A stretch of DNA of 35,471 nucleotides, taken from positions 1-35,471 of the forward strand of contig JBNKUM010000106.1 in NCBI GenBank assembly GCA_050298595.1, read 5' to 3'. Numbering within the stretch: the stretch's first letter is position 1; every line of letters begins with the position of its first letter. The DNA comes from Gammaproteobacteria bacterium. GTDB taxonomy: Bacteria; Pseudomonadota; Gammaproteobacteria; GCA-001735895. Made by a program: the position numbers and the translations under genes. Shown here piece by piece: positions 7,976 through 34,412 of this stretch. The notes beneath the pieces were generated by a model that saw nothing but the letters and a program-made list of their open reading frames with translations, made no database searches and had not been told where the DNA came from.

Positions 7976-8584
7976 TTAAAATCCTGGTGGTAATTTTGTG
8001 TGTACCGCTGATTTAATAGGTTTCAAAGACTCGGTAATACCTAATGTTTTAGCGACAGCATAAACCATTGGTCTAAGCAGTACTCCCTGCTCAACCTCCA
8101 TTAAATTACGAAAATGTATTTTATGAAGAGTATTTGCTCTTTTACTGCGCCTATCAAAATCAAATTCACATAACTCAGGGCTGCTTTCAGCAACATAAGT
8201 ACGACAAACTAATGGGCGGGCTGTATACACCATGCATCTCCCATCTTCTAAAAATAAGCAGGGAATTCGAAGTTTATTAATTTGTCGCTCCGCAGAGATT
8301 AAATCATCTTCTGTTAATGGATTATAAACCGATGCATTAGGTGTAATATGGTTGAACTTCCTTATCCATTCTTCCCCACTTTCTTTAGCTTTGACGCGCT
8401 GCTCCATGTTTAAAGATGACAATATGTAGCGCTCTAACACCAACCCCTCCTGAGAAAATATCGATACACTTTGGTGGCAACATGCTGAACATCCCTCGGT
8501 GCATACTTTAGGGATGTTTTTCATTGCCCAGTCAACTCGTTTAAGGCAGTTTTTAGTATCTCGATAAACCTTTTCTACATTCAT
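7976..8584 (-). CDS. YkgJ/UPF0153-family cysteine-cluster protein
   Basis: CTEGCSACC and CLFLEDGRCMVYTARPLVCRTY motifs. Confidence 0.9.
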   Translation of the reverse strand: MNVEKVYRDTKNCLKRVDWAMKNIPKVCTEGCSACCHQSVSIFSQEGLVLERYILSSLNMEQRVKAKESGEEWIRKFNHITPNASVYNPLTEDDLISAERQINKLRIPCLFLEDGRCMVYTARPLVCRTYVAESSPELCEFDFDRRSKRANTLHKIHFRNLMEVEQGVLLRPMVYAVAKTLGITESLKPIKSAVHTKLPPGF

Positions 8585-8710
8585 TATTCAATAGTCCGTT
8601 TTCTATGTGTAAAAATTAAAAGATTATTTTTTTTATCTGCTAAATAATCGATAAATCTCACTTTTTCTCAACCACTTCATATCTGTCATTGAATTCTGCT
8701 ATTGGATATT

Positions 8711-11347
8711 CTAACGATACTCCACGTTCTTGATTGTCATTTCAGTGCTCGATGTTATTACTCTTTCCTTTTTGATAGGCGCAGCAGCTTCATTTTTTAT
8801 ACTAATGCCGAAGAACAACAAAGTAACTACCGCAAGGGCTGCGACAGCCATAGCACTTAAGCTGATGCCTTTATCTCCGTAGTCATATGTATTTTTATGG
8901 GTTAGCTCATAAGTCATGGATGATGCTAATATTTTCTCCAGACTCTTTTTTTCACCAGTTGTGGCCATAACCAGGGACTCTCTCATTTGTTTTGCAACTT
9001 TATCGATAAAGGGTAATGACATGGGGTGCCCTGCTTCCGTGGCGATCCGGTTACAGACGACCATAGTGGTTCTGGTGTTGCCTTCCATGAATGGGTGTAT
9101 CTGCCAAAGCTCTGTCATAAAGTCAGTTAATTTTTCAGTGAATTCTGACTGATCAAGTCCTTTGAAATTATTATGTTTGTCCAACTCATTGAACAATTTT
9201 TCAGCCCTCGGGATAATTGAATCTTCGTGCTTACCTGGAGAAGCGTATTCGACAGATTTACCACCCAGGAGAGGTTCCTTTTTTCCTATTGCCAGTTCTC
9301 TTTCATCACCGGCCCAGTCAGGGTAAACGTCCTGGAATATGTAAGCGTGCGTAGCTTTAACAGCAGCGAAATCAATCTTTCCCTCCATTGGATTATCGAT
9401 GAGTTCTTTTATCCTTAAACCAGAAAAAAAAGTTTCGCACTCTCGTAACTGCTTAGGGTCTTTTTCGTCAAACCAATTTTTGAGTACATTCGTTCCCTGA
9501 TAATTATATTTTTCAATAGTGGGGTGCACGTTTGCTTGTGTTATATTTTGCATTTTTACCTGGTCCCAGTCGTAGCCTATCGGCTTATTTGTTTCAAGCC
9601 AGTCATAATCGATTGGATTCATTTGATCAAAGGATAGAGAGGTTAAACCCACATCCTTAAGTTCAACACCGAGAAATTTTGCAATGCCTTCTGATATTTC
9701 CAATATTTCATCACTACTTAAATTCTTGGTTAAAAAGTTTTCCAGGTGTTGACCGTGTTTGTTACCTTCTGTAAATGCAATCAACTGGTAGCCTTTCTCT
9801 CTCTCTGATGGTGGAGTTTCCCAACTTCCAAACAGCTCAGTACTTAGCTCAATATGGCTCAACTTACCTATATCTATGTTCTTAGAAATATCAATATTGA
9901 CGGTTTTTCCTCCGGGCAGTTCATGCCTATAAACAGTTCGCTTATTGTACTCATGTGATAAGACATTAAGGTGTTTTACATACTGCTCAGCCTGACTCTT
10001 ACTTTTGAAAAGCGCTACATCATCTTTTATGTCGAAAGTACTGCCGATTCTAATCCCCTCAACCATGTGATATACGTCACCTTTCAAAAAATCCCCTAGA
10101 TGCTCTGCTCTCTTGGATAATTCAATTACAGGCTCTAGATCATCTCCGTATTCAGGTGGATAAAAATAGGGCCTGAGCTCCATTTCGCTAACTGTGAAGC
10201 TTTTATATTTAGCTAAATCTACATTAAAATTTGCTTCTTCTGCTTTTCCATAAAGTTTATGTCCAAAATCCTCGAGTAGTTCTTGGTGCTCAGCTAGGCT
10301 TTTATTATCAAGCCAATAATTGAACTTTTTTGCATCTTCAGTGTTGTCATTTAAAGATTTCTTGAAACCATAATCTTCTGCGCTGAATACTTTATTGAAT
10401 TTCTCTCGAGCTTTGTTATATGTTTCTTCGTCGCCATTTTCACGCAATGAATTGGCATGAATAAGCTCATTAAGCGCTTCTTCCATTTTAGCACTCATAG
10501 GCTTTATAACTGTTTCATCACTCCAAGGTAAGTATATTGTTGTTTTTTCTATTTCCAATTCCTTGTGATTTAGTATTGCTCTTAGTTCTTCACTTAATTT
10601 ATTTTCTGCGGCGAGTCGTTTCTCCCGTTCTTCCTCACTATAAATATAAGCCCAGTAATTGAAATCTTTTTCGTCTTGCGGGTCAGCAAATACAGGTTTT
10701 TTTAAATCGTCTTGTGACTCATAATCATCACCGAAAAAAGCTTTATTGAAATTATTTCTCGCAATATTGTAGACTTCTTCGTCGGCTCCATTTGCTTGCT
10801 CAACAAAGGCTTTCTTAAGCTCTGATAGTGCTATTTTCATTTCATAAGGCATAACTTTAAAATTTCTCTCCCCTTCCTTGAAATTTTTAATGTTTTCACG
10901 CCATGCCTCAAAATGCTTGTTTACGCGTAGGTTATGATCGTCCCATTCTTCTGTTCCATCACTGCCACCATCGTAATATGAAAATATTTTAACCCACTCG
11001 CCCTCCCCTATGTTTACCACAGTCGGATCCATTCCTAATCCCAACGAGATGCCTTTCTCTTTTAAAAATTCCCACCCTTCGTCATTTGCCAGAGGTGTAG
11101 CGTAAAGAGGTACTCCTCCGTATTCTCGAGTGCCAGGTAAACCGCCGTAACCAAATAATCCATATTGGATATCTCTAATTTTTTGACGTACCGGTCCTTT
11201 CCAGCCTTCAGCGGGTGTCAGGCTATTTGCAGTGATTCGCAGGGCTTCTCTGGCGAGATATTTAACCTTGTCCCTGGGTGCTCTGATAAATCGTTGGAAA
11301 GTTGAAATTTCTTCAAGCTTTACAACTGTGAGGCAATACTCTCCCAT
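8711..11347 (-). CDS. Large multidomain Fic protein (FicT/VbhT-like domain) with C-terminal TM helix
   Basis: Y.Y.GTNVLKN, H.YIFQDVY..WAG..R and HPFMEGNTRT motifs. About 610-aa unknown N-terminal part. TM segment LSAMAVAALAVVTLLFFGISI. Confidence 0.88.
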   Translation of the reverse strand: MGEYCLTVVKLEEISTFQRFIRAPRDKVKYLAREALRITANSLTPAEGWKGPVRQKIRDIQYGLFGYGGLPGTREYGGVPLYATPLANDEGWEFLKEKGISLGLGMDPTVVNIGEGEWVKIFSYYDGGSDGTEEWDDHNLRVNKHFEAWRENIKNFKEGERNFKVMPYEMKIALSELKKAFVEQANGADEEVYNIARNNFNKAFFGDDYESQDDLKKPVFADPQDEKDFNYWAYIYSEEEREKRLAAENKLSEELRAILNHKELEIEKTTIYLPWSDETVIKPMSAKMEEALNELIHANSLRENGDEETYNKAREKFNKVFSAEDYGFKKSLNDNTEDAKKFNYWLDNKSLAEHQELLEDFGHKLYGKAEEANFNVDLAKYKSFTVSEMELRPYFYPPEYGDDLEPVIELSKRAEHLGDFLKGDVYHMVEGIRIGSTFDIKDDVALFKSKSQAEQYVKHLNVLSHEYNKRTVYRHELPGGKTVNIDISKNIDIGKLSHIELSTELFGSWETPPSEREKGYQLIAFTEGNKHGQHLENFLTKNLSSDEILEISEGIAKFLGVELKDVGLTSLSFDQMNPIDYDWLETNKPIGYDWDQVKMQNITQANVHPTIEKYNYQGTNVLKNWFDEKDPKQLRECETFFSGLRIKELIDNPMEGKIDFAAVKATHAYIFQDVYPDWAGDERELAIGKKEPLLGGKSVEYASPGKHEDSIIPRAEKLFNELDKHNNFKGLDQSEFTEKLTDFMTELWQIHPFMEGNTRTTMVVCNRIATEAGHPMSLPFIDKVAKQMRESLVMATTGEKKSLEKILASSMTYELTHKNTYDYGDKGISLSAMAVAALAVVTLLFFGISIKNEAAAPIKKERVITSSTEMTIKNVEYR

Positions 11348-11358
11348 GTTGATACCTC

Positions 11359-11550
11359 TTATTTTTTGTCCTGTTTAAGCGAATAGCCATTGATATCGGC
11401 ATACTCTTTTCTAATCTCGTCATGGCTTTTTTTACCATCGGCAGCCTGACCAAATAATCGTAGTATTTTAGGTGAGATATCCATACCAGCGACTTTTATA
11501 AATGCTGTGTACTTAGATAATATTGTTTGTCTGTTGTTTGTATTTTTCAT
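11359..11550 (-). CDS. VbhA/FicA-like antitoxin
   Basis: 63 aa, immediately upstream of the Fic gene. Pattern A....AGMDISP....L......G..S.DEI aligns by eye with VbhA. Confidence 0.7.
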   Translation of the reverse strand: MKNTNNRQTILSKYTAFIKVAGMDISPKILRLFGQAADGKKSHDEIRKEYADINGYSLKQDKK

Positions 11551-11555
11551 GATAT

Positions 11556-14522
11556 CTACCTTGCGATTGTATAGGTATTTATTGAACCAGATGTTTGTCT
11601 TAAGGCTGACGCACCTATCGCAGCATACAATTTTATATCTATTGACTCGTCTAGAGTCCAGGTGATGGTTTTATCCAGGTCTTTTGGATCATAGCTGCTA
11701 AAAGTATCAATATTGGCAACTTCTGTGTCATTGTAGTCAGGCAAAAGTGGTAGTGTTATATTTTTCCGTATCTCAACGGTAACCCCCGCAGGAATGATGT
11801 AGTAACCGCCTTGATTTGTTATTTCTGCATTATTTGTAACACTGAAAACTGTTGAAGTAGAATCGCTTATAGTGTGATTTAGAGTGGTAGAATTGAGGTT
11901 ATTCCTCGGAAATCCTGATTCATAAATATTTTCATATGTTGTGTATTTCTCCATATTCCTGTGGACAACCCATTCGTCTAATAAGGCTGGGTTTTGTATG
12001 AAGTAAGTGTGTACAGAAACACATGCATAATGAGAATCAAACCGATAATCTGCAAATGTTGTTTCTTGGGTGCCGCCTTCAGACCACGACCAAGAAGGAT
12101 CTGAATATCCAGACCCTTCATGACAAATCATATCACTATTATCTGCCCAGTCTGTATCTGGTTGAACAGGAACTACATCTTGATACACATTCGTGAAATC
12201 AGATGTAATGACTGGAGCTTCAATTACATCCCAATCGGAACCATTCCATTTATCAATTGAGTTTATGTCGATCCATGATGATGTGGAGTTATACGCATTA
12301 ATATAACGTGCTCTCCAATGCTCAGTTGATATCGTAGCCATTCTGTTTACTCTTATCGCAGTTTCATAAACCTGCTCAATTGAGTGATTATCGGTAGTGC
12401 TGAAATCCATATAGATTGGGTTGTCAGATCCATTGGAGATAGTTGCCACAGAAGAAACCGAATTACCAAATATAGTTGATCGACTAGTGAATGGCTTATT
12501 AATAACACTAGCCCCGTCAGAACTGCCAGTTGCAGTGACATTGTAGAGAAGAACATCAAACTGCATTTTGTACGATATTAATGTTGAGTGACCAACATTA
12601 TCAGTTACTTTCACAGTCACTACATGATTATCCGTGGTAGAAGTAATAAACCAGTCTGAACCTAAATATTCTGTAGTGATAGGCAAAATATAGTAACCAT
12701 CTAATGATCCAGGAATTGAGCTTTTAAAACCGGTATTTAAGCTTGTCCAATCAACAACCAATTCATCATTTTTTTCATATTTATATTCAACCTTCAAATC
12801 CTCGAACTGAGAATATACATTTGCCCCAACAACATCACCGGCTGAAAACTCTAAGTATACAAAGTTCAGACTTTGTAAGTTTCTATCTGCTGATGCTCCG
12901 TTTAGTGAAACACGGTCAGAACGCACACAAAGCGGAACTGAACTATCTGTAACAAAATTCTCATAATTACATAAGGCGTACTGACCTTGATATGTGGTGT
13001 GTAATATAGACCTTGTTCTTGGTGTTACGGAGGGAGGTAGGAGGTCGACTCCGACTTGATAACTTTGTGTAGTAGAGTTTGTCAGCTCGTCAACAGCAAC
13101 GACACCAAATGAATTTTGACCGCTAGTTAATGTTATATTCGCTTCCCATGTACCATCTGGATTAATCGTAGCGGCTTCACCATCAACAGTGATTGACTGT
13201 ATGTCAGAACCTGAACTAATCCAAGTTCCTGTAGCGGTGTAATCAGTACTACCCACTACAGCAGCTGAGGTCATATTAATTGCAGGGCCTGTATTCGATA
13301 TGTTGTAAGTTGCTAAAAGAGTTGTTTCGTTGCCGATCAGATCAACCGCGACTACTTTTACGACATGGCTACCGTCTGTGTAATTTGATGTATTCAGGTT
13401 TAGCGTTGTTCCAGTGGGGCCGTTCGTGGTCACTAAGCCGTTATCCACATAAAAAGAAATCGTTTTTACTCCAACCGGATCATCTATTGAGAAAGGGATA
13501 TCAGTTGTACCACCGATATAACTATTTTCTGCCAGTTGCAATCCAACAGCAGGCCCCTCATTATCAACAGGTTGCCCTGGTTCTCCAGCCCAGATGCTGT
13601 CTGTATTCGTTGAGAGTGCGTTAGCAAATACTAAAAGCTTTTCAATATCCAGACCTGTCTTATTTTCATCAGATTTAGCGAAGCTTAGTATCCTCTGCGC
13701 CAGTATATTGCGGTACATGATTGGGGTGATCGGGTAGGTACCAAAAGCTAGTGAGCCAATGGTTGTACTGTCTATATACCCATTTCCGTTAAGCATCCCA
13801 TCAGCTTTGATATCGTTGCATGCTACTCTTGACCACTGCATCGATGTAAGAAACGTCTCGCTATGAGGATCTAGCCCGTTGGCTCCTGAGACATCAGCCA
13901 TCGATGTCGAAATACCTGCGGTCAGAAATCCATATTTAAGTCCTGGTGTTAACTCTATATTTGCACTGTTGATATCAGTCACATCAATAGGTTTTGTCTG
14001 GATGATTTCAACACCTGCAATTGACGCTATTTTTGAATTAGCGAGATTTAAAGCATCAGGTACGCTCTCCCCTTCTGCCACTAAATATTCAGCATAGCAT
14101 CGGGCCAAATTAGTGAATGGTGTAACCTGGAGTGTCAGGGTCTCGCCTGATTGATAGTTGGTGATAGCGCTGATATTTTGGCCTGCTGATAAGCCAATGC
14201 TTTTGCCGCTAGCTTCTTCGGTGTATGCGCCACTGTCACCGGCGACTATCATAATGGGTTTGTCTTCTGAAACGAGTTCAAGCGCGTAGTTGCCATCACC
14301 GTCTGTTTCTGTTTGACCCAGTAGAGCTCCTTTTTTGCCAGTTGACCAATCGTATATCTTAATCTGTGCATTGCGCAGGGGTGCATCGTGAGCAACACCT
14401 GAGAAAGATCCGGCTGGTCGTGTCGGTGGTAAGTCGCTCCCTCCCCCGCTGTTGCCACTGCCGCCACAACCTGTTAAACCCGTTAATAATAGTACCGCTG
14501 AAACTCCTATTATCCTTTTCAT
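11556..14522 (-). CDS. Large outer-membrane lipoprotein with Ig-like domains (putative adhesin)
   Basis: Lipobox LTGC (Cys19) followed by a Gly/Ser tether. Ig-like signatures such as LNTSNYTDGSHVVKVVAVDLIGN and ATINPDGTWEANITLTSGQNSFGVVAVD. T/S/N/D-rich. Confidence 0.85.
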   Translation of the reverse strand: MKRIIGVSAVLLLTGLTGCGGSGNSGGGSDLPPTRPAGSFSGVAHDAPLRNAQIKIYDWSTGKKGALLGQTETDGDGNYALELVSEDKPIMIVAGDSGAYTEEASGKSIGLSAGQNISAITNYQSGETLTLQVTPFTNLARCYAEYLVAEGESVPDALNLANSKIASIAGVEIIQTKPIDVTDINSANIELTPGLKYGFLTAGISTSMADVSGANGLDPHSETFLTSMQWSRVACNDIKADGMLNGNGYIDSTTIGSLAFGTYPITPIMYRNILAQRILSFAKSDENKTGLDIEKLLVFANALSTNTDSIWAGEPGQPVDNEGPAVGLQLAENSYIGGTTDIPFSIDDPVGVKTISFYVDNGLVTTNGPTGTTLNLNTSNYTDGSHVVKVVAVDLIGNETTLLATYNISNTGPAINMTSAAVVGSTDYTATGTWISSGSDIQSITVDGEAATINPDGTWEANITLTSGQNSFGVVAVDELTNSTTQSYQVGVDLLPPSVTPRTRSILHTTYQGQYALCNYENFVTDSSVPLCVRSDRVSLNGASADRNLQSLNFVYLEFSAGDVVGANVYSQFEDLKVEYKYEKNDELVVDWTSLNTGFKSSIPGSLDGYYILPITTEYLGSDWFITSTTDNHVVTVKVTDNVGHSTLISYKMQFDVLLYNVTATGSSDGASVINKPFTSRSTIFGNSVSSVATISNGSDNPIYMDFSTTDNHSIEQVYETAIRVNRMATISTEHWRARYINAYNSTSSWIDINSIDKWNGSDWDVIEAPVITSDFTNVYQDVVPVQPDTDWADNSDMICHEGSGYSDPSWSWSEGGTQETTFADYRFDSHYACVSVHTYFIQNPALLDEWVVHRNMEKYTTYENIYESGFPRNNLNSTTLNHTISDSTSTVFSVTNNAEITNQGGYYIIPAGVTVEIRKNITLPLLPDYNDTEVANIDTFSSYDPKDLDKTITWTLDESIDIKLYAAIGASALRQTSGSINTYTIAR

Positions 14523-14534
14523 TTTTTTCTCCCG

Positions 14535-15101
14535 TTAAAAATTTAAACTAAATCCGATGTCTACGCCTTCAAGCGTGTCTGATAGTGGTAATTGATATCC
14601 AATACTGAAACCTATTCCCATATCCCTGTTAATTTCCCATGTGTTCGTTAGCCTCGCAGCAAGGGCAAAATTTGTTCCGCTTTGGTCGGGGAATTGCTGT
14701 GCCAGGAACCCGTCTTTATCAATGGTATGGCGTTTTGAAAACTCATCCATGTTGATGACGAGACCAACCCCTGCCCAGGGTTTAAAGTCTCTTCCCCATT
14801 TTAACCGACTCTCGTAATAAGTCGCTAGCGAAATAGTTTTAACTTGTTGACCTATTTTGGATGTGCTGGCATCAAGTTCAAAATCATAATAAGTACCTTC
14901 AGATATTATCTGTGTGTCCCTGGATGTTTTGTACTTCACTGTGGCACTTAATAACTGGAGTACAGATGATGTTTCTGTTGATCCATCCGGATCGTTCACC
15001 TGGAAGGTTACGAATTTTGGGGTCCATGCATAGCTGATGCTGTCCTCTGCTATCGCGTTTGATGAGATTACTATTAAAACTGCAAATATTCCTTTTTTCA
15101 T
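14535..15101 (-). CDS. Small outer-membrane beta-barrel protein
   Basis: Signal peptide ending AIA; alternating amphipathic strands; KPWAGVGL; C-terminal GFSLNF beta-signal; size fits about 8 strands. Confidence 0.85.
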   Translation of the reverse strand: MKKGIFAVLIVISSNAIAEDSISYAWTPKFVTFQVNDPDGSTETSSVLQLLSATVKYKTSRDTQIISEGTYYDFELDASTSKIGQQVKTISLATYYESRLKWGRDFKPWAGVGLVINMDEFSKRHTIDKDGFLAQQFPDQSGTNFALAARLTNTWEINRDMGIGFSIGYQLPLSDTLEGVDIGFSLNF

Positions 15102-15104
15102 TAC

Positions 15105-15428
15105 TTACTTACCTGATATTTTGCTAACTAAAATTCGTTCGTTTTCCTCGGCTTCTTTCACCTGGTCTTTACTGACAATCAGTTCTATTACAGTTAAGTT
15201 GTTCTTTTCTAATATTGCGCTCAACCTGGATTCCACTGTGTTTATCACCCGAGAAAGACTTTGCTTGTGTGACCCTTCAGATTTAAGGACTTCAGTACGA
15301 GGTATATTTTCCACAAGTACCTTGTATGCGATCATAAGGTTTTTTTTGCTTAGCCTTGATCCTTTGGTAGCTAAATCAAATTGTGTTTTATTCATTTTGA
15401 ATTCTGCGTCTTCTTCGTTGTGGCGCAT
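15105..15428 (-). CDS. KorA/TrfB(ArdK)-like transcriptional repressor
   Basis: QF..A...S......IA..VLV...P.......G..KQSLSR.I matches the KorA HTH layout. Alternative start at 15395. Confidence 0.75.
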   Translation of the reverse strand: MRHNEEDAEFKMNKTQFDLATKGSRLSKKNLMIAYKVLVENIPRTEVLKSEGSHKQSLSRVINTVESRLSAILEKNNLTVIELIVSKDQVKEAEENERILVSKISGK

Positions 15429-15467
15429 TGTATCGGTCTAATCCTGTATTGTTAATCAATCCTCTCT

Positions 15468-15511
15468 AATATAGCTTCAGGTGGTTACTTGTCAACAGTT
15501 AAAGCTATATT
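15468..15511 (-). promoter_or_regulatory. Promoter of the KorA-like operon, bracketed by an inverted repeat
   Basis: Minus strand TTGACA-16-TATATT. AATATAGCTT...AAGCTATATT arms flank the promoter. Confidence 0.75.
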
Positions 15512-15699
15512 TATGAATAAATTCATGGATTTGAGAATATTCCGGGAGTTCTTCAGCGAACCGATAACATTTTCTTCCTATTGTCCTTCGGGCTATTTAG
15601 TAATGCAGTTTTAAGTTATTCGTTAAATATGCGGCTTGGAGCCGCGCATCAGATCATCAAATGCGGTTTTATCTTGTCGAGGTTTCGATGAGCCGAGTA

Positions 15700-15817
15700 T
15701 TACAGGGATGTATTAATTTATACAGGGATGTATTCCTTATGTGAGCGCAGCGAGCTGTAAGGCATGGATGCCGCGCTAGGGTGTGAGCTTGCGAACGGGT
15801 GCCTACAGGGATGTAGG
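15700..15817. repeat. Three copies of TACAGGGATGTA
   Basis: At 15701, 15721 and 15804; each is TACA-GGGA-TGTA (dyad). Confidence 0.85.
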
Positions 15818-15869: not shown

Positions 15870-16252
15870 TCTTTATGGTTAAAGAGGTTAAAAAGGGTTA
15901 GCTAAAATAGATTCTAAATTAAGTCCTTTTATTTCAATATGTTAACTTCGATTAATTATCCACAGGTAGTTAAATCTACGACATTCGGTTGTTAAGAATA
16001 CGATAATTTTTACAGTTCGGTACGACACTAGTAGTTAAGAATACGACACTAAGTTGCTAAGAATACGACACTAAGTTGTTAAGAATACGACACTGAATCT
16101 ATATTTATCCACAGACTGGAGTCTCAAAGTTAAGTCTATGAAATAGCTCCAGTGTTCCCCATTACGCAATTGAGTAACAGGTTGGCATTCAGGTAGTTAA
16201 AAATACGACACTTCAATATTTCCTGGATGACAGGTAGTTAAGAATACGACAA
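15870..16252. other. Iteron-type replication origin (oriV)
   Basis: GTWGTTAAGAATACGACAC-like iterons at 15966, 15988, ~16010, 16031, 16053, 16075 (~22-bp period) plus two at ~16193 and ~16234. Perfect DnaA boxes TTATCCACA at 15956 and 16105. AT-rich GGTTA repeats at 15877-15905. Confidence 0.92.
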
Positions 16253-16257
16253 CCCTG

Positions 16258-17082
16258 TCACAGGGGTATCACATCTTTGCCGTTTGCTCTCGATACCCTG
16301 ACTAGATTTTCTTTTATTTCAAAATCGAGTAGAAACCCTGTGTCTACCAGCTCCTTTAGGTATTTTGGTAGGGCTTGTTTAAATGACTTTTGTTCGCTTT
16401 TGATATTACAAAGCTGGTAAAGCTTGGTAACAGTTACAGGGAAAGGGGTCCTATGGCTTGCTACCCATCCGTGCAGTCTTTTGGCAATGGGGCTCAATTT
16501 CACCCTCCTTTCCCATTCTAGCTGTGTATAGTGCACATCACCGTAAAGAGCATTCATTTCTGGTTCTACCCATACTTTCCATTTGTTTTCAGTTCCTGTC
16601 ATATCTCTATATTCAAACTTTCGTATTAGAGATACTGTGCTTGCATGGCCAAGTCTTTTAGAGCTGACGGTGACCGTTGTAGCCTGCATCCTGGATAAAC
16701 ATTCTCTAAGCCTCTCATAGTGAGCTTGGGATGGCCGATTTTTTCCTTTAGCCCAACCCAGTTCCTTAATCATGCTATAAGGCGTGAATTCTATTCGGTT
16801 GCCAAGTTGCTGGTTCCTGGCTATATGCATGACTTGCAGCCATACATCTTCATCATAGGTCCTTAGTTCTTCACCTCGATATGTGATTTCACCATCACCC
16901 AGGACAAACAAAACAGCATCTTTGAATATTTCGCGTTCCCCTCGAATACGTGCGGTGAACAGGCTGGATCGTATAACTTCGTTGGGTGTCCCACGAAACT
17001 TTTCATCCCAGAGCGGTAGCTGTTTTGGTGCTTTAGCTGCTCGCTCTTCTATCTTTTTTAAGGTGTCTTCTAAATCCTTCAT
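16258..17082 (-). CDS. trfA: Replication initiator, TrfA family
   Basis: QLPLW clamp-binding motif; RGTPN..IRSSLFTA, ITYRGEEL...DEDVW, L.RMQAT and SLIRKF motifs; adjacent iterons. Confidence 0.9.
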   Translation of the reverse strand: MKDLEDTLKKIEERAAKAPKQLPLWDEKFRGTPNEVIRSSLFTARIRGEREIFKDAVLFVLGDGEITYRGEELRTYDEDVWLQVMHIARNQQLGNRIEFTPYSMIKELGWAKGKNRPSQAHYERLRECLSRMQATTVTVSSKRLGHASTVSLIRKFEYRDMTGTENKWKVWVEPEMNALYGDVHYTQLEWERRVKLSPIAKRLHGWVASHRTPFPVTVTKLYQLCNIKSEQKSFKQALPKYLKELVDTGFLLDFEIKENLVRVSRANGKDVIPL

Positions 17083-26649: not shown

Positions 26650-27000
26650 ATGTTCATCAAACTTTCAAAAAACTATTTTTTCTTTTCTTTTTTCTTCCTT
26701 GCCATTCTTTTCCTGGTGGCTTTTTCTGTCTCAGCCGATGAGACATTACCTGGTTATCTGGGGCAAAGTAAGTCAGCAGAGGCTTCACTGGGTGGAATAG
26801 GTAAAAAGGTGGTCGAGTGGATTTTATATCTGGCAGTTGTGCTTTCTTCAATTGCATCAGCTGCGGGGCTGGCAATGATAAATGGTTTAATCGGCAATAA
26901 AGAAAAAGGCATGGACATGATTAAAACAGGATTGTCAGTGATGGCTATCTCTGGTGTTGCACTGGGCATATTTGCATTTTTCGCTGGTCTTGGCCATTAA
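26650..27000 (+). CDS. VirB2-like pilin
   Basis: GGAG RBS; signal peptide plus two hydrophobic helices separated by a short charged loop; first gene of the mating-pair cluster. Confidence 0.65.
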   Translation: MFIKLSKNYFFFSFFFLAILFLVAFSVSADETLPGYLGQSKSAEASLGGIGKKVVEWILYLAVVLSSIASAAGLAMINGLIGNKEKGMDMIKTGLSVMAISGVALGIFAFFAGLGH

Positions 27001-27003
27001 TCA

Positions 27004-27282
27004 ATGATCGATTCTTTCAACGCCCGGATAAAGCCTCCCATGATCGGGGGCTTCCATGCTTATTTTGTCTACAGCCTGATTTTTGGCCTCATCAAATTTT
27101 GGCTTGGTATTTTACTGATGAGAGAGGGTATTCCAATCGGCTTGTTTCTTTTCCTCGGGTCGCTCGCTCTTTTGAGTTTCGGTATTTATGTTCTAAGAAA
27201 CGCATCTGACTGGCTGATGCTCGCAGCCTTCAGATCCTCGTCTGATGAATCTAAAGCAAGGATTAACCTTATAGAGAATTAA
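27004..27282 (+). CDS. VirB3-like membrane protein
   Basis: KPPMIGG motif; two TM helices; sits between the pilin and VirB4. Confidence 0.7.
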   Translation: MIDSFNARIKPPMIGGFHAYFVYSLIFGLIKFWLGILLMREGIPIGLFLFLGSLALLSFGIYVLRNASDWLMLAAFRSSSDESKARINLIEN

Positions 27283-27283
27283 A

Positions 27284-29629
27284 ATGTTATACCATGAATA
27301 TTACACATGGCAGTGTTGCACCGATGACTACGTTATCGGACATTCCGACGGAACTTGCTCGCTAGCTTTCACCTGGACCGGATTAGACCATAAGTTATTC
27401 AACGAAGCGGACTATGATGGAACCATCAAAAATAGACTTAATCTGCTAAACCGTTTATCAAATACAGGCTTAACTGTCGAAAACCATTGGTTTAGATCCC
27501 ATGATGAAAGCATGATCGATGCTTATTTAGCAAAAAACAAAGATATCGTTCGCGGCCATGATTTAGCGATTAAAGTACGCGAAGAAATGGCTGAACACTA
27601 TCGCCCACTCGCCATGAACAACCGGGTGATAACAATATTTACTCTCTCACCTGGATCTGCAAGCAGAAAGCTTTCATCCATTTTCCAGTCTAAGACAAAT
27701 AAAAAAGTTAGTCTTTGGGAAACGCTTTCTTTGCAACTCCATATTTTAGTGGGTGAATTTAAAAATGATTTTCCAGGCATGAAGCTTTTAAACAAAGACG
27801 AGGCTTTCAGTCTGTTAAGTAATTCTTACAGTCTAAACAAAAGCACCACCTCTTACGATTCGCGCTATGACATGAGCGAGCAGCTTGTTATTAATAAGCC
27901 AGAGCTTTCTGGTCAATGCCTTTTTCATAATGGCAAATACATAAAGTATGCTCTGATTCAAAAATACCCAACACTTACTTATGACTGGATGCTAAATTTC
28001 AGTAGCCAAAACTGTGATACTCATATTTCCCAAGTATTGCGCGGTGTTGATAGACAAAAAGCCCTGCGCAAATCTACCGAGCAATCCGATACCGACGAGC
28101 GTACAACGGGAGGAAAAGATACAGAGCTTCTTGTCAAGGATCTGGATGATGCACAGAGTTATAGAAGTTATATCGCTCAATATAATCTCTCAGTATTCAG
28201 TAATGCATTTATCATTTCTTTTATCTCTGATGACAAAGACACTGCGCTAGAGCATTGCTCAAATTTTACTAAGGTTATCGGCGACGAAGGCGGTCTGGCC
28301 AGAGTCGAGCCTGAACTTCAGATGCACTTGCATAGAGTTTCACAACCAGGTCTCGGTCATCACTCTCAGTTCAGGCGTGAAGACCATTCTGCATCAATTG
28401 CCTGCATGCTCCCCTGGACTGTCTTTTCATCGGGAAATCCAAATCCTGAATCTATTCGCTTATCTTCCGATTACCAGGTTATCGGTTATAGTCCAACTCA
28501 GCTCCAGGTAGGTCATGAAATTAACTTTGGTAAGACAGGAGGTGGCAAGGATACCCACGGCGGGACAGAGGTTGCTGAAACGTATCCTCTGGGTTTCGAT
28601 TATTACATTTTAGAGTTCGGCGACTCATACAAATGGGTGGTGCAGGGCTACGGTGGTACTTACTCAACCATCGACCCTGACAGCGTCATCATCAATCCCT
28701 TGCCAGACTATACCGATGCCAGGGGTGGTGTGTTGCCGTCTCAAATATCATCCGGCACTGCTCAAGGTCTGGCTATCATACTACTTGATGATGCAAGGGA
28801 TCTTACTAGGGCGGAGGAATCGGCAACTGAGAGAGCGCTGGGTATACTCTACAGCAACCCAGACCCATCTAAAGCAGCGCCAACCCTCCCTGATCTACTC
28901 GACTCTTTCAGACGTGCTGAATATATCAATAGTTCACAAAGTGATGCAGCAGCAATCATGTCAAATAACCTTGAAAATTTTCTCGACGGTAGCAGCGGCA
29001 GGGCTTTCAAAGGTCAGGATAATTTATCACTTAGCGATGGCATAACAGGCATTGACTTGGTCAAGGTTGATAAAAAAATGCTCAAGTTTTATCTAACTTT
29101 TATATGTTTGCGATTCGCTCAGAAGGCTTTTTTTAATTTAGAGCAACACACAAAAATCATTCTCAATGAATTGCATGTGGCCATTGATGTTGCGCCTGAA
29201 GTCGTAAAACATTTAATACGAACAATTAACCGAATGGGTCGAAAGGAGGGTAGTTTCATCATGCTAACTACTCAGGGCATGAACGAGATACATGCCATTG
29301 ATTCGGAGATTGTCACATCTTCACCCATCAGAACTTTGCAAGTCCGTACGGACAGCTGGCAGGACATTGGCACCTTATTGGATATGCCGTCTAAAGCGAT
29401 TGATATCTGGTCACAATACAATCAGGACACGGATAACATGAATTTTCGCCAGTGTATGCGGAAGCTTTACGGACAGTGGTTTGACCTCTATATGACGTTC
29501 CCGCCGTTTTTACTGGATATCACATCAACCAGCCGCAATGACAGATTGCTTAAACACAAAGTTGAAAGGGATCACACAGATATTTTTAGTCGCATAAATG
29601 AATTAAGAAAATTAAGGAGTCAGCAATGA
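27284..29629 (+). CDS. VirB4-family ATPase
   Basis: 781 aa; DGT.S....W.G.D N-terminus; G.TGGGK, E.G.SY, INP, PTL.DL and R.GRK.G.....TQ motifs. Confidence 0.88.
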   Translation: MLYHEYYTWQCCTDDYVIGHSDGTCSLAFTWTGLDHKLFNEADYDGTIKNRLNLLNRLSNTGLTVENHWFRSHDESMIDAYLAKNKDIVRGHDLAIKVREEMAEHYRPLAMNNRVITIFTLSPGSASRKLSSIFQSKTNKKVSLWETLSLQLHILVGEFKNDFPGMKLLNKDEAFSLLSNSYSLNKSTTSYDSRYDMSEQLVINKPELSGQCLFHNGKYIKYALIQKYPTLTYDWMLNFSSQNCDTHISQVLRGVDRQKALRKSTEQSDTDERTTGGKDTELLVKDLDDAQSYRSYIAQYNLSVFSNAFIISFISDDKDTALEHCSNFTKVIGDEGGLARVEPELQMHLHRVSQPGLGHHSQFRREDHSASIACMLPWTVFSSGNPNPESIRLSSDYQVIGYSPTQLQVGHEINFGKTGGGKDTHGGTEVAETYPLGFDYYILEFGDSYKWVVQGYGGTYSTIDPDSVIINPLPDYTDARGGVLPSQISSGTAQGLAIILLDDARDLTRAEESATERALGILYSNPDPSKAAPTLPDLLDSFRRAEYINSSQSDAAAIMSNNLENFLDGSSGRAFKGQDNLSLSDGITGIDLVKVDKKMLKFYLTFICLRFAQKAFFNLEQHTKIILNELHVAIDVAPEVVKHLIRTINRMGRKEGSFIMLTTQGMNEIHAIDSEIVTSSPIRTLQVRTDSWQDIGTLLDMPSKAIDIWSQYNQDTDNMNFRQCMRKLYGQWFDLYMTFPPFLLDITSTSRNDRLLKHKVERDHTDIFSRINELRKLRSQQ

Positions 29630-30279
29630 AAAAGGTATTATTTTTACTACTCGTAACAACCAGCTTTAATGCATCATCACAAGCCACAGATGCGGGTTCC
29701 ACGATGAAACTCTCCGCCATACTTGCGCAACTGAAAGAAGAATACAAAGGCATTATGGATCAGTTGGAGGAAGCCAAAGCAGCCAGCGAAACAATGACGG
29801 AGATTAACAAGATATCTGGTGAAATCTATGAGGAATATAAATTTATTAATGATTTCAGTATTGACAATGAAATCCGCATGATAACCAATGACATCAAAGG
29901 TTTATCAGGTCTTGGCGGTTGGAGTGAGACCGACGACGAAGGAAAATTCAGGTTACTCAGAGCTGAAATTGACCGCCGCTTTGAAGATAATCCAGAGAAG
30001 AAAAAAGACTTACTTAACCAGGTCAGTGAAATGGAGCGGCTGGAGGCCCTGAAACAAAAGAAACTTGAAGAAGCCGCGCAAGCTGGTAATGGATCGATGA
30101 ACGACAAAAATCTCAACTCATCTATTGCCTCTTCCAACGCTCTTTTGTCTGCTATTGCATTATCCGAAGAACAACAAAAAATTCAGGATCAAATGAAAAA
30201 GGAGGGATCGGCCCAGGATGCTAAAGCTTACGAGGATAGCTTTATTGAATTCCTCGATAAAAGCAAAACAAACAAATAG
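29626..30279 (+). CDS. VirB5-like secreted helical protein
   Basis: Signal peptide; coiled-coil content; position between VirB4 and VirB6. Confidence 0.6.
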   Translation: MKKVLFLLLVTTSFNASSQATDAGSTMKLSAILAQLKEEYKGIMDQLEEAKAASETMTEINKISGEIYEEYKFINDFSIDNEIRMITNDIKGLSGLGGWSETDDEGKFRLLRAEIDRRFEDNPEKKKDLLNQVSEMERLEALKQKKLEEAAQAGNGSMNDKNLNSSIASSNALLSAIALSEEQQKIQDQMKKEGSAQDAKAYEDSFIEFLDKSKTNK

Positions 30280-30288
30280 GAGACTAAA

Positions 30289-31359
30289 ATGGATTCTAAC
30301 CCTTTTGGATTTGACATTAATAATTTTACTGGCGTTCTAAACCCTTTCCCTATTTATGATGCTGTTGGCACTGCCGCCGGTATCTGGTCAGTCATATTAC
30401 CTTTCATGCTGTCCCTGGTATTTACAATCAGATACTTTTCTGAGTCTGCCCGGAATTTAACAGGAAACGCTCGATTTGCTGAAGCTGGCGGGGAGCTCTT
30501 GAATGAAACTGTAATTGCGTTTGCTTACTCCTTCGGTGGTTTTCTGATATTAAAGTTTCTGATTGCATTATCAGGTTACTTTTATACATTCGGCTCATTT
30601 TCTGTTATCGCTAAGGACTTCGGACAATTAATTGCAGACCTGAAAGCTAGGCAAAGTGGTTATGACACTGATTTCGTTACAAACTTCCTTGATATTTTGT
30701 CATCGGCAACCATGCCTTTTACCTATTTGTTTTTCCTGATTACGTCCTCTTTATTTGTGCTAATTCATTCTCTCACCAGATTTATTTACGCATTATATTT
30801 CTCAATCATCTATCTCTGGGGGTTTGTTGCAATCCCTACTGGTGCATTGGGATCCATGTCCCTGAAGCAGGGGTGGATAAAGTCATTTATGATTTTAGGT
30901 ATATGGCCCATTCTTGAAGCAACTTTATATTTTTTCATGAAATTTGTGATTGCTGACGTATCCAAAAAAGCGTTGTCCGCTTACGCAGGCGCAGACGTTG
31001 CTCAATTCTCTGCGTTGCACGGTCTTATGGGTTCTGTATGCCTGGTCTTGATAATTATTACATTGGCAGCCCCTTATATGGCAATCCGTATTGGATCAAA
31101 TCAGGAGTCGCTATCTGGACTGATGACACCTGCTGTTGCTACAGCAGCTTTTGTGTATCAACTAACCACTAACAAAACGAAACAAATGGGTGGTTCCATG
31201 CTCCCTAATCCTAAGGGTGACCGGAACAGAGATAAGGTAATGGGCGGGTTACAAAATTTTAATTCAGGCGCAATTCCCGCTGTCGGCAGGGCGGTTTCGA
31301 GTGGCGCGCGTGGACTAGGGAATGCTGTTTCTAATGCCCTAAAAAAATCTTCTAATTAA
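30289..31359 (+). CDS. VirB6-like polytopic membrane protein
   Basis: At least five TM helices; Gly/Ala-rich basic tail. Confidence 0.75.
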   Translation: MDSNPFGFDINNFTGVLNPFPIYDAVGTAAGIWSVILPFMLSLVFTIRYFSESARNLTGNARFAEAGGELLNETVIAFAYSFGGFLILKFLIALSGYFYTFGSFSVIAKDFGQLIADLKARQSGYDTDFVTNFLDILSSATMPFTYLFFLITSSLFVLIHSLTRFIYALYFSIIYLWGFVAIPTGALGSMSLKQGWIKSFMILGIWPILEATLYFFMKFVIADVSKKALSAYAGADVAQFSALHGLMGSVCLVLIIITLAAPYMAIRIGSNQESLSGLMTPAVATAAFVYQLTTNKTKQMGGSMLPNPKGDRNRDKVMGGLQNFNSGAIPAVGRAVSSGARGLGNAVSNALKKSSN

Positions 31360-31377
31360 TAATCCAGGTCTTTAAAC

Positions 31378-32004
31378 ATGACTGATACAATCGCATTAGC
31401 TGAACCAGAATCCATCCATGTCAAACCGGAAGTATCACCACAGGCGCGGCGTGAGCGTTTGCTTGAACGCCGCGTTAACTGGCTATTGATTTTTGTCGGT
31501 ATCCAATTCCTCGGTATCATCCTGCTTTCTTTTACTTTTGTGTACCGCCCTCAAACTCCAATTGTCATCGATAGAGAAACGGGCCAAATTGTCGGTGACT
31601 ACCGGACATCAACATTCCGCACTCAAGAAGAAATGATTAACGGCGGCTATCGGTTTGTTGACCATTTACTATCACTGAATAGTTCGACTTTTAGGAGAGA
31701 TCAGTTTATAGCCATGACCATGATGTCAGACTCACTCCGTTCAAAGCGGGTCGAGTGGCTTGAAAAAACTAATTTGATACCTAAGGTTGAGAGCGCTAAT
31801 TCAACTTCGCATCTCGAATACGAAAAACCTGTTGTTATTTTCGCTAAAGGCGACATGCTGCGAGTTGAGTTCAAAGGTAAAATAATCCTGACTAACCTGA
31901 AAAAGCCGGGATCTCCTTTTCACATAATTGTCGATCTTGTCAATACAATAATCACCAAGGAAAACACTTCTGGCGTTAAAGTGGAGGCTTACAATGACTT
32001 CTAG
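31378..32004 (+). CDS. VirB8-like protein
   Basis: Single TM helix, P.VID..TG motif, and C-terminal T.EN.SG..V motif typical of VirB8/TraE-like folds. Confidence 0.75.
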   Translation: MTDTIALAEPESIHVKPEVSPQARRERLLERRVNWLLIFVGIQFLGIILLSFTFVYRPQTPIVIDRETGQIVGDYRTSTFRTQEEMINGGYRFVDHLLSLNSSTFRRDQFIAMTMMSDSLRSKRVEWLEKTNLIPKVESANSTSHLEYEKPVVIFAKGDMLRVEFKGKIILTNLKKPGSPFHIIVDLVNTIITKENTSGVKVEAYNDF

Positions 32005-32911
32005 ATACCTACTTACCTTTTTGTTCTTTGCTCTGTTTACAGTCCCCTCGCTGGCGGTGACTAGCACAGATCCTCTCAGTCCAAAGACTCGGACCATAGA
32101 AATAAAACCCGTCACTGAAGCTGTCATTGATGTATTGCCCGGACGCGCAGTGCAATTTATTTTTCCCTGGGTTTTAGACGATGATGATGAAAACCTTCCT
32201 TTTATGTACACGCTGTCTAACGATGTTTATTTCAATAAGCCGATAGTCAAGAAAGGTCAGAACGTACTTGCTGTAACTTACAAGACTATTACTAAAAAAA
32301 TGGACGGAGAAGTTACTGACCTGTTGATTAGCTCCCACGGCTACCATTTTTCTTTCACTCTTAAAGCTAACTTCAAACCTAGTAAGCATTATTCCACTAT
32401 CGTGCTGAAGCTCTCTGATTCAGAGCGACTGGCTCTGATCGATAATGAATACAAAAAGGTGCGCGAACAACTGATAGCTGAAAAAGCAAGACTTGAATCC
32501 GAAATCAATGACAGGGCCAGTCTTCAGGCGCTGGCCCTGGTAGGTGGACTTTCGTTAAAAGATCCTGACAGCACAGGAGTTAAAGAAGAAAAGGCGGTTA
32601 CCTTGCCTAACGGCGATAAGGTAGTTGGATACGTTGATGGTTACGACAACTTTGGTTCATTCACTAATTTCAGAGTCGAGCTTGACAACGACAGTAAGTC
32701 TCCTGTGTACATCAAGGACGTTCTCCTCGGCAGTAAGGACAACTCAGGGAATAAAAAACTCTTTCCTTCAGCTTTTCTTTTCCCTCCCAAACTGAAACCG
32801 GGTGAAGTTGTGAAAGGAACTGTTTCCACACTTAATTTTATTGAGAACGATGACGGCGACAACTTCGTGTTGTTCTCAACAGACCAGGGCGACATAGAGG
32901 TTGATTTCTAA
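31994..32911 (+). CDS. VirB9-like core-complex protein
   Basis: Signal peptide; beta-rich N- and C-domains joined by a coiled coil; I.V.PG....F.FP and L.PGE motifs. Confidence 0.65.
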   Translation: MTSRYLLTFLFFALFTVPSLAVTSTDPLSPKTRTIEIKPVTEAVIDVLPGRAVQFIFPWVLDDDDENLPFMYTLSNDVYFNKPIVKKGQNVLAVTYKTITKKMDGEVTDLLISSHGYHFSFTLKANFKPSKHYSTIVLKLSDSERLALIDNEYKKVREQLIAEKARLESEINDRASLQALALVGGLSLKDPDSTGVKEEKAVTLPNGDKVVGYVDGYDNFGSFTNFRVELDNDSKSPVYIKDVLLGSKDNSGNKKLFPSAFLFPPKLKPGEVVKGTVSTLNFIENDDGDNFVLFSTDQGDIEVDF

Positions 32912-34071: not shown

Positions 34072-34412
34072 ACGCTGATCAATTTTCTCGCCTTGAGCCT
34101 TTTTTATATCGACTCGGTGATAAGTCTATCATCGTGGTTTACTTGCTAACATTTCTGAAGCCGAGCGAAATCAAAGAAATTGACTGCGGATGGCTTGCCT
34201 CACACCGCTCGGGCATTCCTTTTCTTGATTCAACAATTGACAACTTTCTATTACAGATCGATGAGAGTAGGGGCCGGTGTTTTTCATTTCGTGGCGGCCG
34301 GCCTTATTCGTTCAAAGATATTGAGAAAATTCTTGTTAGATCCTTTTCTTCTAGTGACATCGAATATGTGAATATAGCCAGCTTTAAATCTTATATTGTG
34401 GCGGGGCAATAG
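34068..34412 (+). CDS. Hypothetical protein resembling a degenerate tyrosine-recombinase fragment
   Basis: TTGA overlap with the virB10-like gene; LLTFLKPSEI and FSFRGGRPYS segments. Confidence 0.6.
   Translation: MNADQFSRLEPFLYRLGDKSIIVVYLLTFLKPSEIKEIDCGWLASHRSGIPFLDSTIDNFLLQIDESRGRCFSFRGGRPYSFKDIEKILVRSFSSSDIEYVNIASFKSYIVAGQ

Follow-up and report, generated by a model that had tools for sequence, protein, structure and literature searches.

To our knowledge, little has been learnt about how conjugation systems other than those of the F, I and H groups locate recipient cells and keep hold of them. Barrel-assisted exposure of lipoproteins is represented by RcsF, which is threaded through OmpA, OmpC or OmpF, and by the Slam-dependent surface lipoproteins, while in IncP-type plasmids KorA (TrfB) controls the kil and accessory operons. 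RSP of IncHI plasmids is described as required for conjugation in liquid (PMC6764697), and Bartonella VbhT as entering recipients by means of a BID domain copied from the relaxase (PMC5675462). The subject of this work is a five-gene unit on the minus strand of a conjugative plasmid, in which genes for a KorA-like repressor, a small outer-membrane beta-barrel, a lipoprotein of 988 amino acids (aa), a 63-aa open reading frame (ORF) product and an 878-aa Fic protein follow one another; the DNA analysed, hereafter the window, is one whole contig of 35,471 nt from a Gammaproteobacteria metagenome-assembled genome (G000:C106).

The unit is best read as a composite, in which a conserved and undescribed contact module, made of the barrel and the lipoprotein, is followed by Fic cargo specific to this plasmid; the probability of this reading is put at about 0.65. 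An earlier note on the same DNA had joined all these genes in one contact system, with the barrel displaying the lipoprotein as an adhesin and the Fic protein acting between donor and recipient; the partnership of barrel and lipoprotein and the tie to conjugation gained support, whereas the link to the Fic pair did not. As judged from homology, the Fic pair is found only on this plasmid among the loci and genomes searched. No description of a barrel and giant lipoprotein pair in a transfer operon was found in titles and beginnings of abstracts, a literature search that left subscription journals aside. The features of the unit, in the order of transcription, are:

15468..15511, minus strand: promoter-like site with a 21-nt inverted repeat, candidate KorA operator
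15105..15428, minus strand: KorA/TrfB-like repressor, 107 aa, Pfam PF16509 KORA
14535..15101, minus strand: small outer-membrane beta-barrel, 188 aa, assigned by signal peptide, C-terminal Phe and fold
11556..14522, minus strand: outer-membrane lipoprotein, 988 aa, with lipobox LTGC and Pfam families Big_7 and Glucodextran_B
11359..11550, minus strand: 63-aa ORF, orphan, candidate partner or inhibitor of the Fic protein
8711..11347, minus strand: mosaic Fic protein, 878 aa, Fic domain PF02661

The association of barrel and lipoprotein was followed along two routes. In the first, all 32 proteins of the window were compared by tblastn with 15 loci holding a lipoprotein match, and in 13 non-self loci the barrel gene was found to precede that of the lipoprotein homologue immediately. 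L012, with a shortened paralogue of 601 aa, and L018, with a fragment of 75 residues, are exceptions; a hidden Markov model (HMM) of the barrel family matches every locus with a full lipoprotein homologue, in agreement with tblastn. In the second, the HMM was applied to a sample of 400 genomes from the class and matched 17 of the 399 other Gammaproteobacteria genomes, one more not being scorable; the lipoprotein homologue lies directly downstream of the barrel in 18 of 20 regions (16 new, 3 behind genes of a type IV secretion system, T4SS), two of the 18 being the same contigs as L011 and L014. Altogether, the two genes are adjacent in all 29 non-self loci that hold both, which supports the earlier note in putting barrel and lipoprotein together; complex prediction adds a little weight to a binding of the two.

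The context of the pair points to conjugation in 12 of these loci. Upstream of the 29 pairs are found T4SS genes (12 loci), KorA (2), genes of housekeeping type (11) or a contig end that is too near (4). The 12 loci, in which the pair stands behind a VirB10 homologue, come from records of Gammaproteobacteria, Nitrospirota and Bacteroidota; in nine loci of the first route the pair directly follows homologues of VirB4, o29626, o30289, o31378, o31994 and TrbI, and thus forms the tail of the T4SS operon. Since the pair ends this operon in 12 loci, a role in contact or as an adhesin is reasonable, and the tie to conjugation proposed earlier for the two genes holds for their position as the last genes of the operon. 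In the window, the T4SS operon (26650-34412, plus strand) is very divergent, its VirB4 being recognised by weak TraC-F-type and TraG P-loop matches, and its gene order is kept in records labelled Gammaproteobacteria, Nitrospirota and Chitinophagaceae (L002, L006, L008-L010, L013, L015-L017 and L053-L055). Besides VirB4 and a weak TrbI, eight ORFs of the operon are without Pfam or NCBIfam family; neither a VirB11-like ATPase nor a recognisable VirB7 or VirB9 family was found among the T4SS ORFs. So divergent is the transfer apparatus of this plasmid family that recognition stops at VirB4, the coupling protein and the relaxase.

The place directly after the VirB10 homologue in 12 loci of three phyla by their records, together with the unrecognisable VirB7 and VirB9 families, could also mean that barrel and lipoprotein belong to the structure of the outer-membrane complex of the T4SS, with the lipoprotein replacing the undetected VirB7; porins associated with the Legionella Dot/Icm system are among the fold matches of the barrel, at ranks 10 and 25 and with low template modelling (TM) scores. 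Such a role appears improbable, however, as the pair stands away from T4SS genes in the window, L005 and L007, eleven loci have no T4SS genes nearby, and the distal half of the lipoprotein is poorly conserved, unlike a core-complex component.

The neighbours of housekeeping type include GlmU/GlmS, ClpB/Hsp20/DegP, MCP, DbpA and YchF; the 11 loci with such neighbours look chromosomal, and the pair would then not be confined to plasmids. In four loci an ATPase of 747-845 aa is encoded directly upstream of the pair (L044:8332-10866, L047:8561-10918, L059:8725-11073 on the minus strand, L060:8656-10896), whose N-terminal 270 residues belong to the XrtA/PEP-CTERM-associated (GspA/ExeA-like) family, with E values from 4e-98 to 6e-79; ATPase, barrel and lipoprotein may represent a three-gene envelope system. 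A DnaJ-domain protein occupies the place of the ATPase in L049 and L056. The genome G034 has four copies of the pair (L046, L053, L055 and L059), of which two stand after T4SS genes, one after the GspA-like ATPase and the fourth in a different context, and a metagenome contig of 51.7 kb bears two near-identical T4SS-barrel-lipoprotein blocks (L015 and L016), the result of either a duplication or a dimer assembly.

A general envelope module, periplasmic or envelope-spanning and not concerned with cell contact, which plasmids would carry as an accessory trait, is in keeping with the barrel in 17 of the 399 genomes, with the XrtA/PEP-CTERM-associated type of ATPase directly upstream in four chromosomal loci and with weak fold matches of the lipoprotein to bacterial alpha-2-macroglobulins. 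We consider it a poor candidate: no thioester or enzyme motif was seen, and copies at the end of T4SS operons are found to either side of the deepest division in the lipoprotein tree, a pattern that chance cargo does not easily account for.

This tree was built with IQ-TREE (LG+G4, unrooted) from 24 full-length lipoprotein homologues, omitting the partial L014, L016 and L053-L055, the two-piece L060, and L012, L018, L052 and L056. The window and four sister plasmids (L005-L008) form one clade with support 100/100. In L005 and L007 a KorA homologue immediately precedes the barrel gene, and the pair follows KorA as it does in the window; in L006 and L008 the KorA homologue lies past the lipoprotein gene. 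Arrangements led by KorA and by the T4SS alternate inside the clade, suggesting that the module moved more than once. T4SS-linked copies occur on both sides of the midpoint split; of the other 13 copies, 12 nest within a single side. An approximately unbiased (AU) test, run after a first quick tree had been seen, rejects the plasmid-linked copies as a single clade (p 2.8e-38), the direction of change not being shown by an unrooted tree.

Outer-membrane lipoproteins carry no Asp at position +2 after the lipobox Cys. The 988-aa protein, whose N-terminus reads ...LLLTGLTGC19-GGS, has the features of this class at the sequence level, namely a lipobox (LTGC) after a signal peptide and no Asp at +2, and Cys19 is nearly invariant in an alignment of 11 sequences. 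In the AlphaFold2 (AF2) model, with an overall predicted local distance difference test (pLDDT) score of 82.3, a disordered Gly/Ser linker (residues 20-37, pLDDT below 50) is followed by a beta-sandwich (38-125), a six-helix domain (135-305), two Ig-like domains recognised by Pfam (325-410 and 414-495; families Big_7 and Glucodextran_B) and more beta domains up to residue 988. The Foldseek matches of the whole model are generic ones of tandem-Ig type, with TM scores of 0.07-0.15; among them are a Bacteroides surface glycan-binding lipoprotein, the extenders of SiiE and RTX adhesins and domains of alpha-2-macroglobulin type. Across 10 relatives, identity to the window's protein reaches its peak in the helical base (0.66) and its minimum in residues 661-870 (0.32-0.37), and none of the 30 nearest ESM Atlas clusters offers a common Pfam family for the base (residues 36-320).

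The lipoprotein is rare: in an index of 5.8 billion proteins 11 relatives besides itself were found, 10 of them full length, and the only full-length match in PLSDB lies on a plasmid of Candidatus Tenderia electrophaga, with 30% identity, where a 186-aa barrel homologue (E 6e-25) directly precedes it and the two close a row of unannotated genes. The base (about 32-359) also heads giant Vibrio and Photobacterium proteins of more than 2363 aa (hits H4-H8; for example L003:5905-12993, on the second replicon of Vibrio campbellii), near which no barrel gene was detected. The shortened 601-aa paralogue of L012 (8618-11773), equally devoid of a barrel, directly follows a gene for a Tle1-like phospholipase of the type VI secretion system. 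Relatives from biocathode and sulfur-oxidiser genomes prompted the idea of a multihaem or electron-transfer role, which was rejected, no CxxCH being noticed on reading the 988-aa translation, without a pattern search.

The variable distal part of the lipoprotein would equally fit the specificity groups of an exclusion or shielding device, which would cover plasmid-bearing cells and keep off unproductive mating, phage or other attack as TraT and Sfx do; genes of this kind are commonly located in or at the end of transfer operons, TraT and Sfx being outer-membrane proteins (PMC11733297 and PMC11493245), and chromosomal copies would agree with a protective role that is independent of the T4SS. 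Nevertheless, known exclusion proteins are small, fold searches liken the 988-aa protein, with its row of Ig-like domains, to adhesins, and Pfam and NCBIfam scans returned no TraT or other exclusion family, so that exclusion or shielding is regarded as unlikely.

The partner of the lipoprotein has a signal peptide and an aromatic end (...SLNF). Its AF2 model (pLDDT 87.4, predicted TM score 0.76) shows a small, closed barrel whose strands extend all along residues 21-187, and its top Foldseek matches are the transmembrane domain of OmpA, Ail, NspA, OmpX and OmpW (E 1.5e-6 to 1e-4, probability 1.00). By sequence the assignment stays below threshold (Pfam OMP_b-brl, E 0.013, 16.2 bits against a cut-off of 28.7), so it is by its modelled fold, not by sequence, that the protein belongs to the small OmpA/OmpX/OmpW-like outer-membrane class; the small barrel of the earlier note is in this way confirmed. 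When residues 20-320 of the lipoprotein and 19-188 of the barrel were submitted together to complex prediction, the score was 0.49 (runs of 0.49, 0.50 and 0.49), the best of three controls reaching 0.00; partner pLDDT was 89 or higher, and the runs had 75% or more of their contacts in common. The mark used for such predictions is reached by 116 of 157 solved complexes and by 2 of 215 mismatched pairs, and scores up to 0.60 comprise only 18 of the 157 solved complexes, yet both of the passing mismatches; these calibration counts hold only roughly here, the complex having been run on its own alignments. The prediction gives a slight indication that the barrel binds the N-terminal part of the lipoprotein.

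A conserved base that meets a dedicated barrel and carries a variable string of Ig-like domains has the layout of an anchored adhesin, and together with the place at the end of a transfer operon this makes mating-pair contact the most likely role of the pair. The barrel would likely sit in the outer membrane and hold or expose the lipoprotein through its conserved N-terminal base, and the variable distal domains would bind the surface of another cell during mating; this binding would serve mating-pair stabilisation, surface exclusion being less likely. A more far-reaching version of the same proposal is a two-partner display not described so far, in which an OmpX-sized barrel exposes a lipoprotein adhesin via the conserved base, and which a divergent conjugative T4SS lineage, spread over at least three phyla, uses as its mating adhesin, while chromosomal copies work with the GspA/ExeA-like ATPase; it is put forward tentatively, with the odds against it. 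As a candidate contact or host-range determinant of environmental plasmids, the pair at the end of a divergent T4SS operon can be tested.

The slot behind the lipoprotein gene is variable across the loci, and is occupied elsewhere by unrelated genes. At least 0.9 kb of DNA follows the lipoprotein gene in 23 of the 29 pair loci, and in none of these 23 was a homologue of the Fic protein or of the 63-aa ORF found by tblastn; in all the fetched pair loci the window's own copy is the sole match for either. The earlier note had held that its Fic link would fall if homologues of the barrel and lipoprotein never co-occurred with the Fic pair, and this neighbourhood check, once run, speaks against the link. 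Integrases occupy the slot in L002 and L015; in L005 (13481-14872, minus strand) a Gp49 (HigB-like)/helix-turn-helix toxin-antitoxin pair and KfrA lie there on the opposite strand, so this sister plasmid has a different addiction module at the place of the Fic pair. In L006 (12855-13532), L007 (12952-13557), L008 (12968-13579) and L013 (13022-13876) a co-oriented gene for a DUF4852 protein comes after the lipoprotein; this protein, on which no paper was found in the literature search, may in some lineages belong to the module as its third component.

The opposite possibility is that all five genes constitute one contact system, the partner cell being the target or the site of action of a Fic protein that serves as effector, exclusion factor or growth control. 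It draws on the single promoter-like site, the gaps of 3-12 nt and the absence of a terminator between the genes, on the conjugative nature of the plasmid and the VbhT/Bep class of the Fic domain, and on the precedent of VbhT, which reaches recipients in conjugation, toxins having been recruited to conjugation repeatedly (PMC5675462). It has, however, little chance of being right. Fic and 63-aa homologues are missing from all 23 loci with downstream DNA, and sister plasmids carry unrelated cargo behind the lipoprotein gene; the Fic protein has no segment in common with the relaxase or with any other protein of the window, while the transfer signal of VbhT copies the BID domain of the relaxase (PMC5675462); and the hydrophobic C-terminal helix in a protein without signal peptide fits retention in the inner membrane of the donor. 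On the favoured, composite reading, the Fic pair is predicted to be cargo of its own, which would have landed as an addiction or host-manipulation module in the variable slot behind the lipoprotein gene. The negative outcome for the link has a value of its own, in that genes closely packed in a plasmid operon turned out not to foretell a functional system.

Mosaic in build, the Fic protein is composed of an orphan module A (1-148), a repeat-like middle part, an orphan module B (466-568), the Fic domain (about 612-822) and a C-terminal helix. The Fic domain announced by the earlier note is recognised by Pfam (PF02661, E 1.9e-12) and by the NCBIfam VbhT model (E 2.1e-23 over residues 612-822, though with 83 bits against an equivalog cut-off of 800), and among solved structures it comes nearest to VbhT (3shg, E 3.5e-15) and the Bep effectors. 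The consensus for AMPylation is HxFx(D/E)GNGRxxR; the motif found at residue 751, HPFMEGNTRTTM (HPFMEGNTR), to which HPFREGNGRTLR of VbhT is aligned, departs from it by Thr in place of Gly8 and Met in place of Arg12. HPFxEGNTRTT is shared by the only two long Fic relatives found (P0013 and P0014), and is thus a marker of a subgroup, not a sign of decay.

An exhaustive phmmer search with residues 1-600 against 1.84 billion representatives gave 18 hits and resolved the two modules, each homologous to small stand-alone proteins of about 100-290 aa (for example P0015, E 2.5e-22, and P0016, E 2.7e-16); none of the 11 module homologues scanned has a Pfam family, and a word-index search with the same residues among proteins of 482-1537 aa found no relative. 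In PLSDB 922 records match the Fic protein, none covering more than one third of it. A duplication (about 168-235 and 283-345) was seen by eye, and none was reported by BLASTP self-comparison. With 878 aa, an N-terminal extension of 600 aa and a C-terminal hydrophobic helix, the protein differs from a compact toxin that consists of Fic alone or of Fic and BID; it has no signal peptide, and its one hydrophobic helix (about 828-852) would tether it to the cytoplasmic face of the inner membrane. There, kept in check by the 63-aa protein, it would attach a nucleotide-derived group to a host protein.

The earlier note's designation of the 63-aa ORF as VbhA-like could not be upheld. It has no Pfam, NCBIfam or PDB match, no match to PF18495 even at E values up to 10 (the control, VbhA of B. 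grahamii, scoring 6.2e-10), no BLASTP match to that VbhA, and no match in 400 other genomes of the class. The inhibitory motif of the VbhA family is (S/T)xxxE(G/N), and it is absent from the 63 residues. MAFFT aligns GQAADG of the ORF to SQRLEG of VbhA, which is suggestive only, and QAADG also to GLQAVDG in the N-terminal part of both HPFxEGNTR relatives; in the ESM Atlas a cluster containing VbhA is found at rank 4 (0.76), as a lead only. Taken together, these results hint, at about even odds, that the ORF is a detached counterpart of the inhibitory helix, with Asp replacing Glu. The Fic part is of lesser importance, as a predicted membrane-tethered mosaic member of the non-canonical HPFxEGNTR subgroup.

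Several points weigh against the composite reading. One promoter and tight spacing resemble a functional unit, and cargo can be co-opted, so absence of the Fic pair elsewhere is no proof of its independence here; moreover, one plasmid alone carries the Fic pair, which makes covariation uninformative. The adhesin role is deduced from architecture and gene position, the lipoprotein could instead face the periplasm, and the score of the predicted complex lies within the weak band. In 11 pair loci no T4SS genes are present for at least 7 kb upstream (5.5 kb in L014), and the pair is therefore no obligate part of conjugation. As for the cargo, the Fic motif departs from the AMPylation consensus by lacking its second Gly and its last Arg, and no family test recognises the 63-aa ORF, whose link to the Fic protein comes from position, size and a resemblance of five residues.

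The layout of the unit is as the earlier note had described it. The list of minus-strand ORFs and their coordinates agree exactly with five co-oriented genes separated by 3, 12, 5 and 11 nt; they occupy about one fifth of the circle, and no minus-strand terminator-like site, of the kind that was to split the unit, separates them, the lone one (8850-8824) being inside the Fic coding sequence (four found against 5.8 expected). The single promoter claimed before the first gene corresponds to the best sigma-70-like site between 7800 and 16300, TTGACA-16-TATATT on the minus strand at 15495-15468, with 11 of 12 consensus positions, just upstream of the KorA gene. The product of this gene is indeed KorA-like, scoring 33.7 bits against a KORA gathering score of 26.7 (E 4.4e-8, residues 12-91). 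A 21-nt inverted repeat (arms 15468-15488 and 15491-15511) brackets the -35 and -10 hexamers, and KorA would likely repress its own promoter. With at most one mismatch, the arm sequence has nine matches in the window against 4.5 expected, the only exact ones being the two arms; a KorA regulon via further palindrome copies was rejected, as beyond these arms no exact copy exists in the window. Shine-Dalgarno-like sequences precede the lipoprotein gene (GGGAG) and the Fic gene (AAGAGG). To judge from these signals, the five genes probably form one compact, co-transcribed unit. Contigs of a second study (151-345 nt) show 0 differences to the unit and span three of its four junctions (KorA/barrel, lipoprotein/63-aa and 63-aa/Fic), hence the arrangement is no assembly chimera.

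Two further features lie outside the five genes:

7976..8584, minus strand: CxxCxxCC (YkgJ-like) ORF, 202 aa, Pfam PF03692, E 4.4e-7
15961-16271: iterons, at least 6 copies of about 22 nt with core GTGTCGTATTCTTAAC, between trfA and the KorA promoter

The CxxCxxCC ORF, whose domain is of a zinc/iron-chelating kind, starts 126 nt past the Fic gene in the same orientation, with a weak promoter-like site between (8671-8644), and is possibly a sixth gene of the unit. It was rejected as an ancestral neighbour of the lipoprotein, the ORFs of about 200 aa being DUF4852 in L006, L007 and L008 and an integrase in L015. The iteron array is likely oriV.

Both ends of the contig share 141 identical bases and thus overlap into a circle of about 35,330 bp. 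Its backbone is that of a conjugative plasmid of TrfA/MOBF type, with a TrfA replication protein (Pfam, E 3.7e-40), KorB-like and ParA-like partition proteins, a TrwB-type coupling protein (E 2e-103) and a TrwC relaxase (E 1.8e-76); family matches of the VirB4-like ATPase and of TrbI/VirB10 are weak. The GC content is slightly low across the Fic region (0.36-0.40 over 8001-11000, most of the plasmid having 0.40-0.47). Megablast of positions 8500-15700 found no match among PLSDB plasmids, and the genome itself has a single copy of each gene of the unit.

When the plasmid is set beside the described systems, its control region resembles that of IncP plasmids, with a KORA-family repressor beside trfA and the iterons of oriV and a palindrome over the promoter; differently from IncP, the repressor gene itself leads the accessory operon and the palindrome, which is unlike the RK2 operator, has no second exact copy in the plasmid.

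As far as sequence goes, VbhTA (the class I Fic toxin and VbhA antitoxin of Bartonella pVbh) is the nearest named module to the Fic pair, although three of its four testable defining features are not seen here. Both modules reside on a conjugative plasmid, the best NCBIfam model and solved relative of the Fic domain are VbhT, and the 63-aa ORF lies 11 nt upstream of the Fic gene as VbhA (62 aa) lies upstream in pBGR3. Conversely, the motif is HPFMEGNTRTTM instead of HPFREGNGRTLR, the plasmid Fic protein has a 600-aa N-terminal extension with two orphan modules and a C-terminal membrane helix where VbhT has the BID domain, and the small ORF lacks the PF18495 match that VbhA of B. grahamii gives (6.2e-10). 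The absence of a BID copy or comparable feature means that the transfer route of VbhTA is not matched.

For the barrel and the lipoprotein, TraN, TraT and Sfx of F-like and IncC plasmids offer the likeness of outer-membrane proteins encoded in the transfer region, which govern contact between cells and whose variable parts confer specificity (PMC11493245). No sequence or family match connects them with the pair, for which Pfam and NCBIfam scans, covering also known adhesin and exclusion families, give only Big_7, Glucodextran_B and sub-threshold matches; the present system consists of a barrel and a 988-aa lipoprotein and occurs also without T4SS genes. RSP of IncHI plasmids is likewise large, plasmid-encoded in a transfer region, located at the cell surface and provided with an Ig-like domain, but it leaves the cell through the T4SS of its plasmid and attaches to flagella (PMC6764697). 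The lipoprotein instead carries a lipobox and a signal of Sec/lipoprotein type and is paired with a dedicated barrel, and no homology between the two proteins was seen outside the Ig-like domains.

Compared with RcsF and the Slam-dependent lipoproteins, the barrel is of OmpA/OmpX size and of a dedicated family, being neither a general porin nor a DUF560 Slam. The likeness consists in the flexible Gly/Ser linker after the Cys, in the gene beside that of a barrel and in the weakly predicted interaction of the N-terminal 300 residues, and in these respects the pair could exemplify barrel-assisted lipoprotein display.

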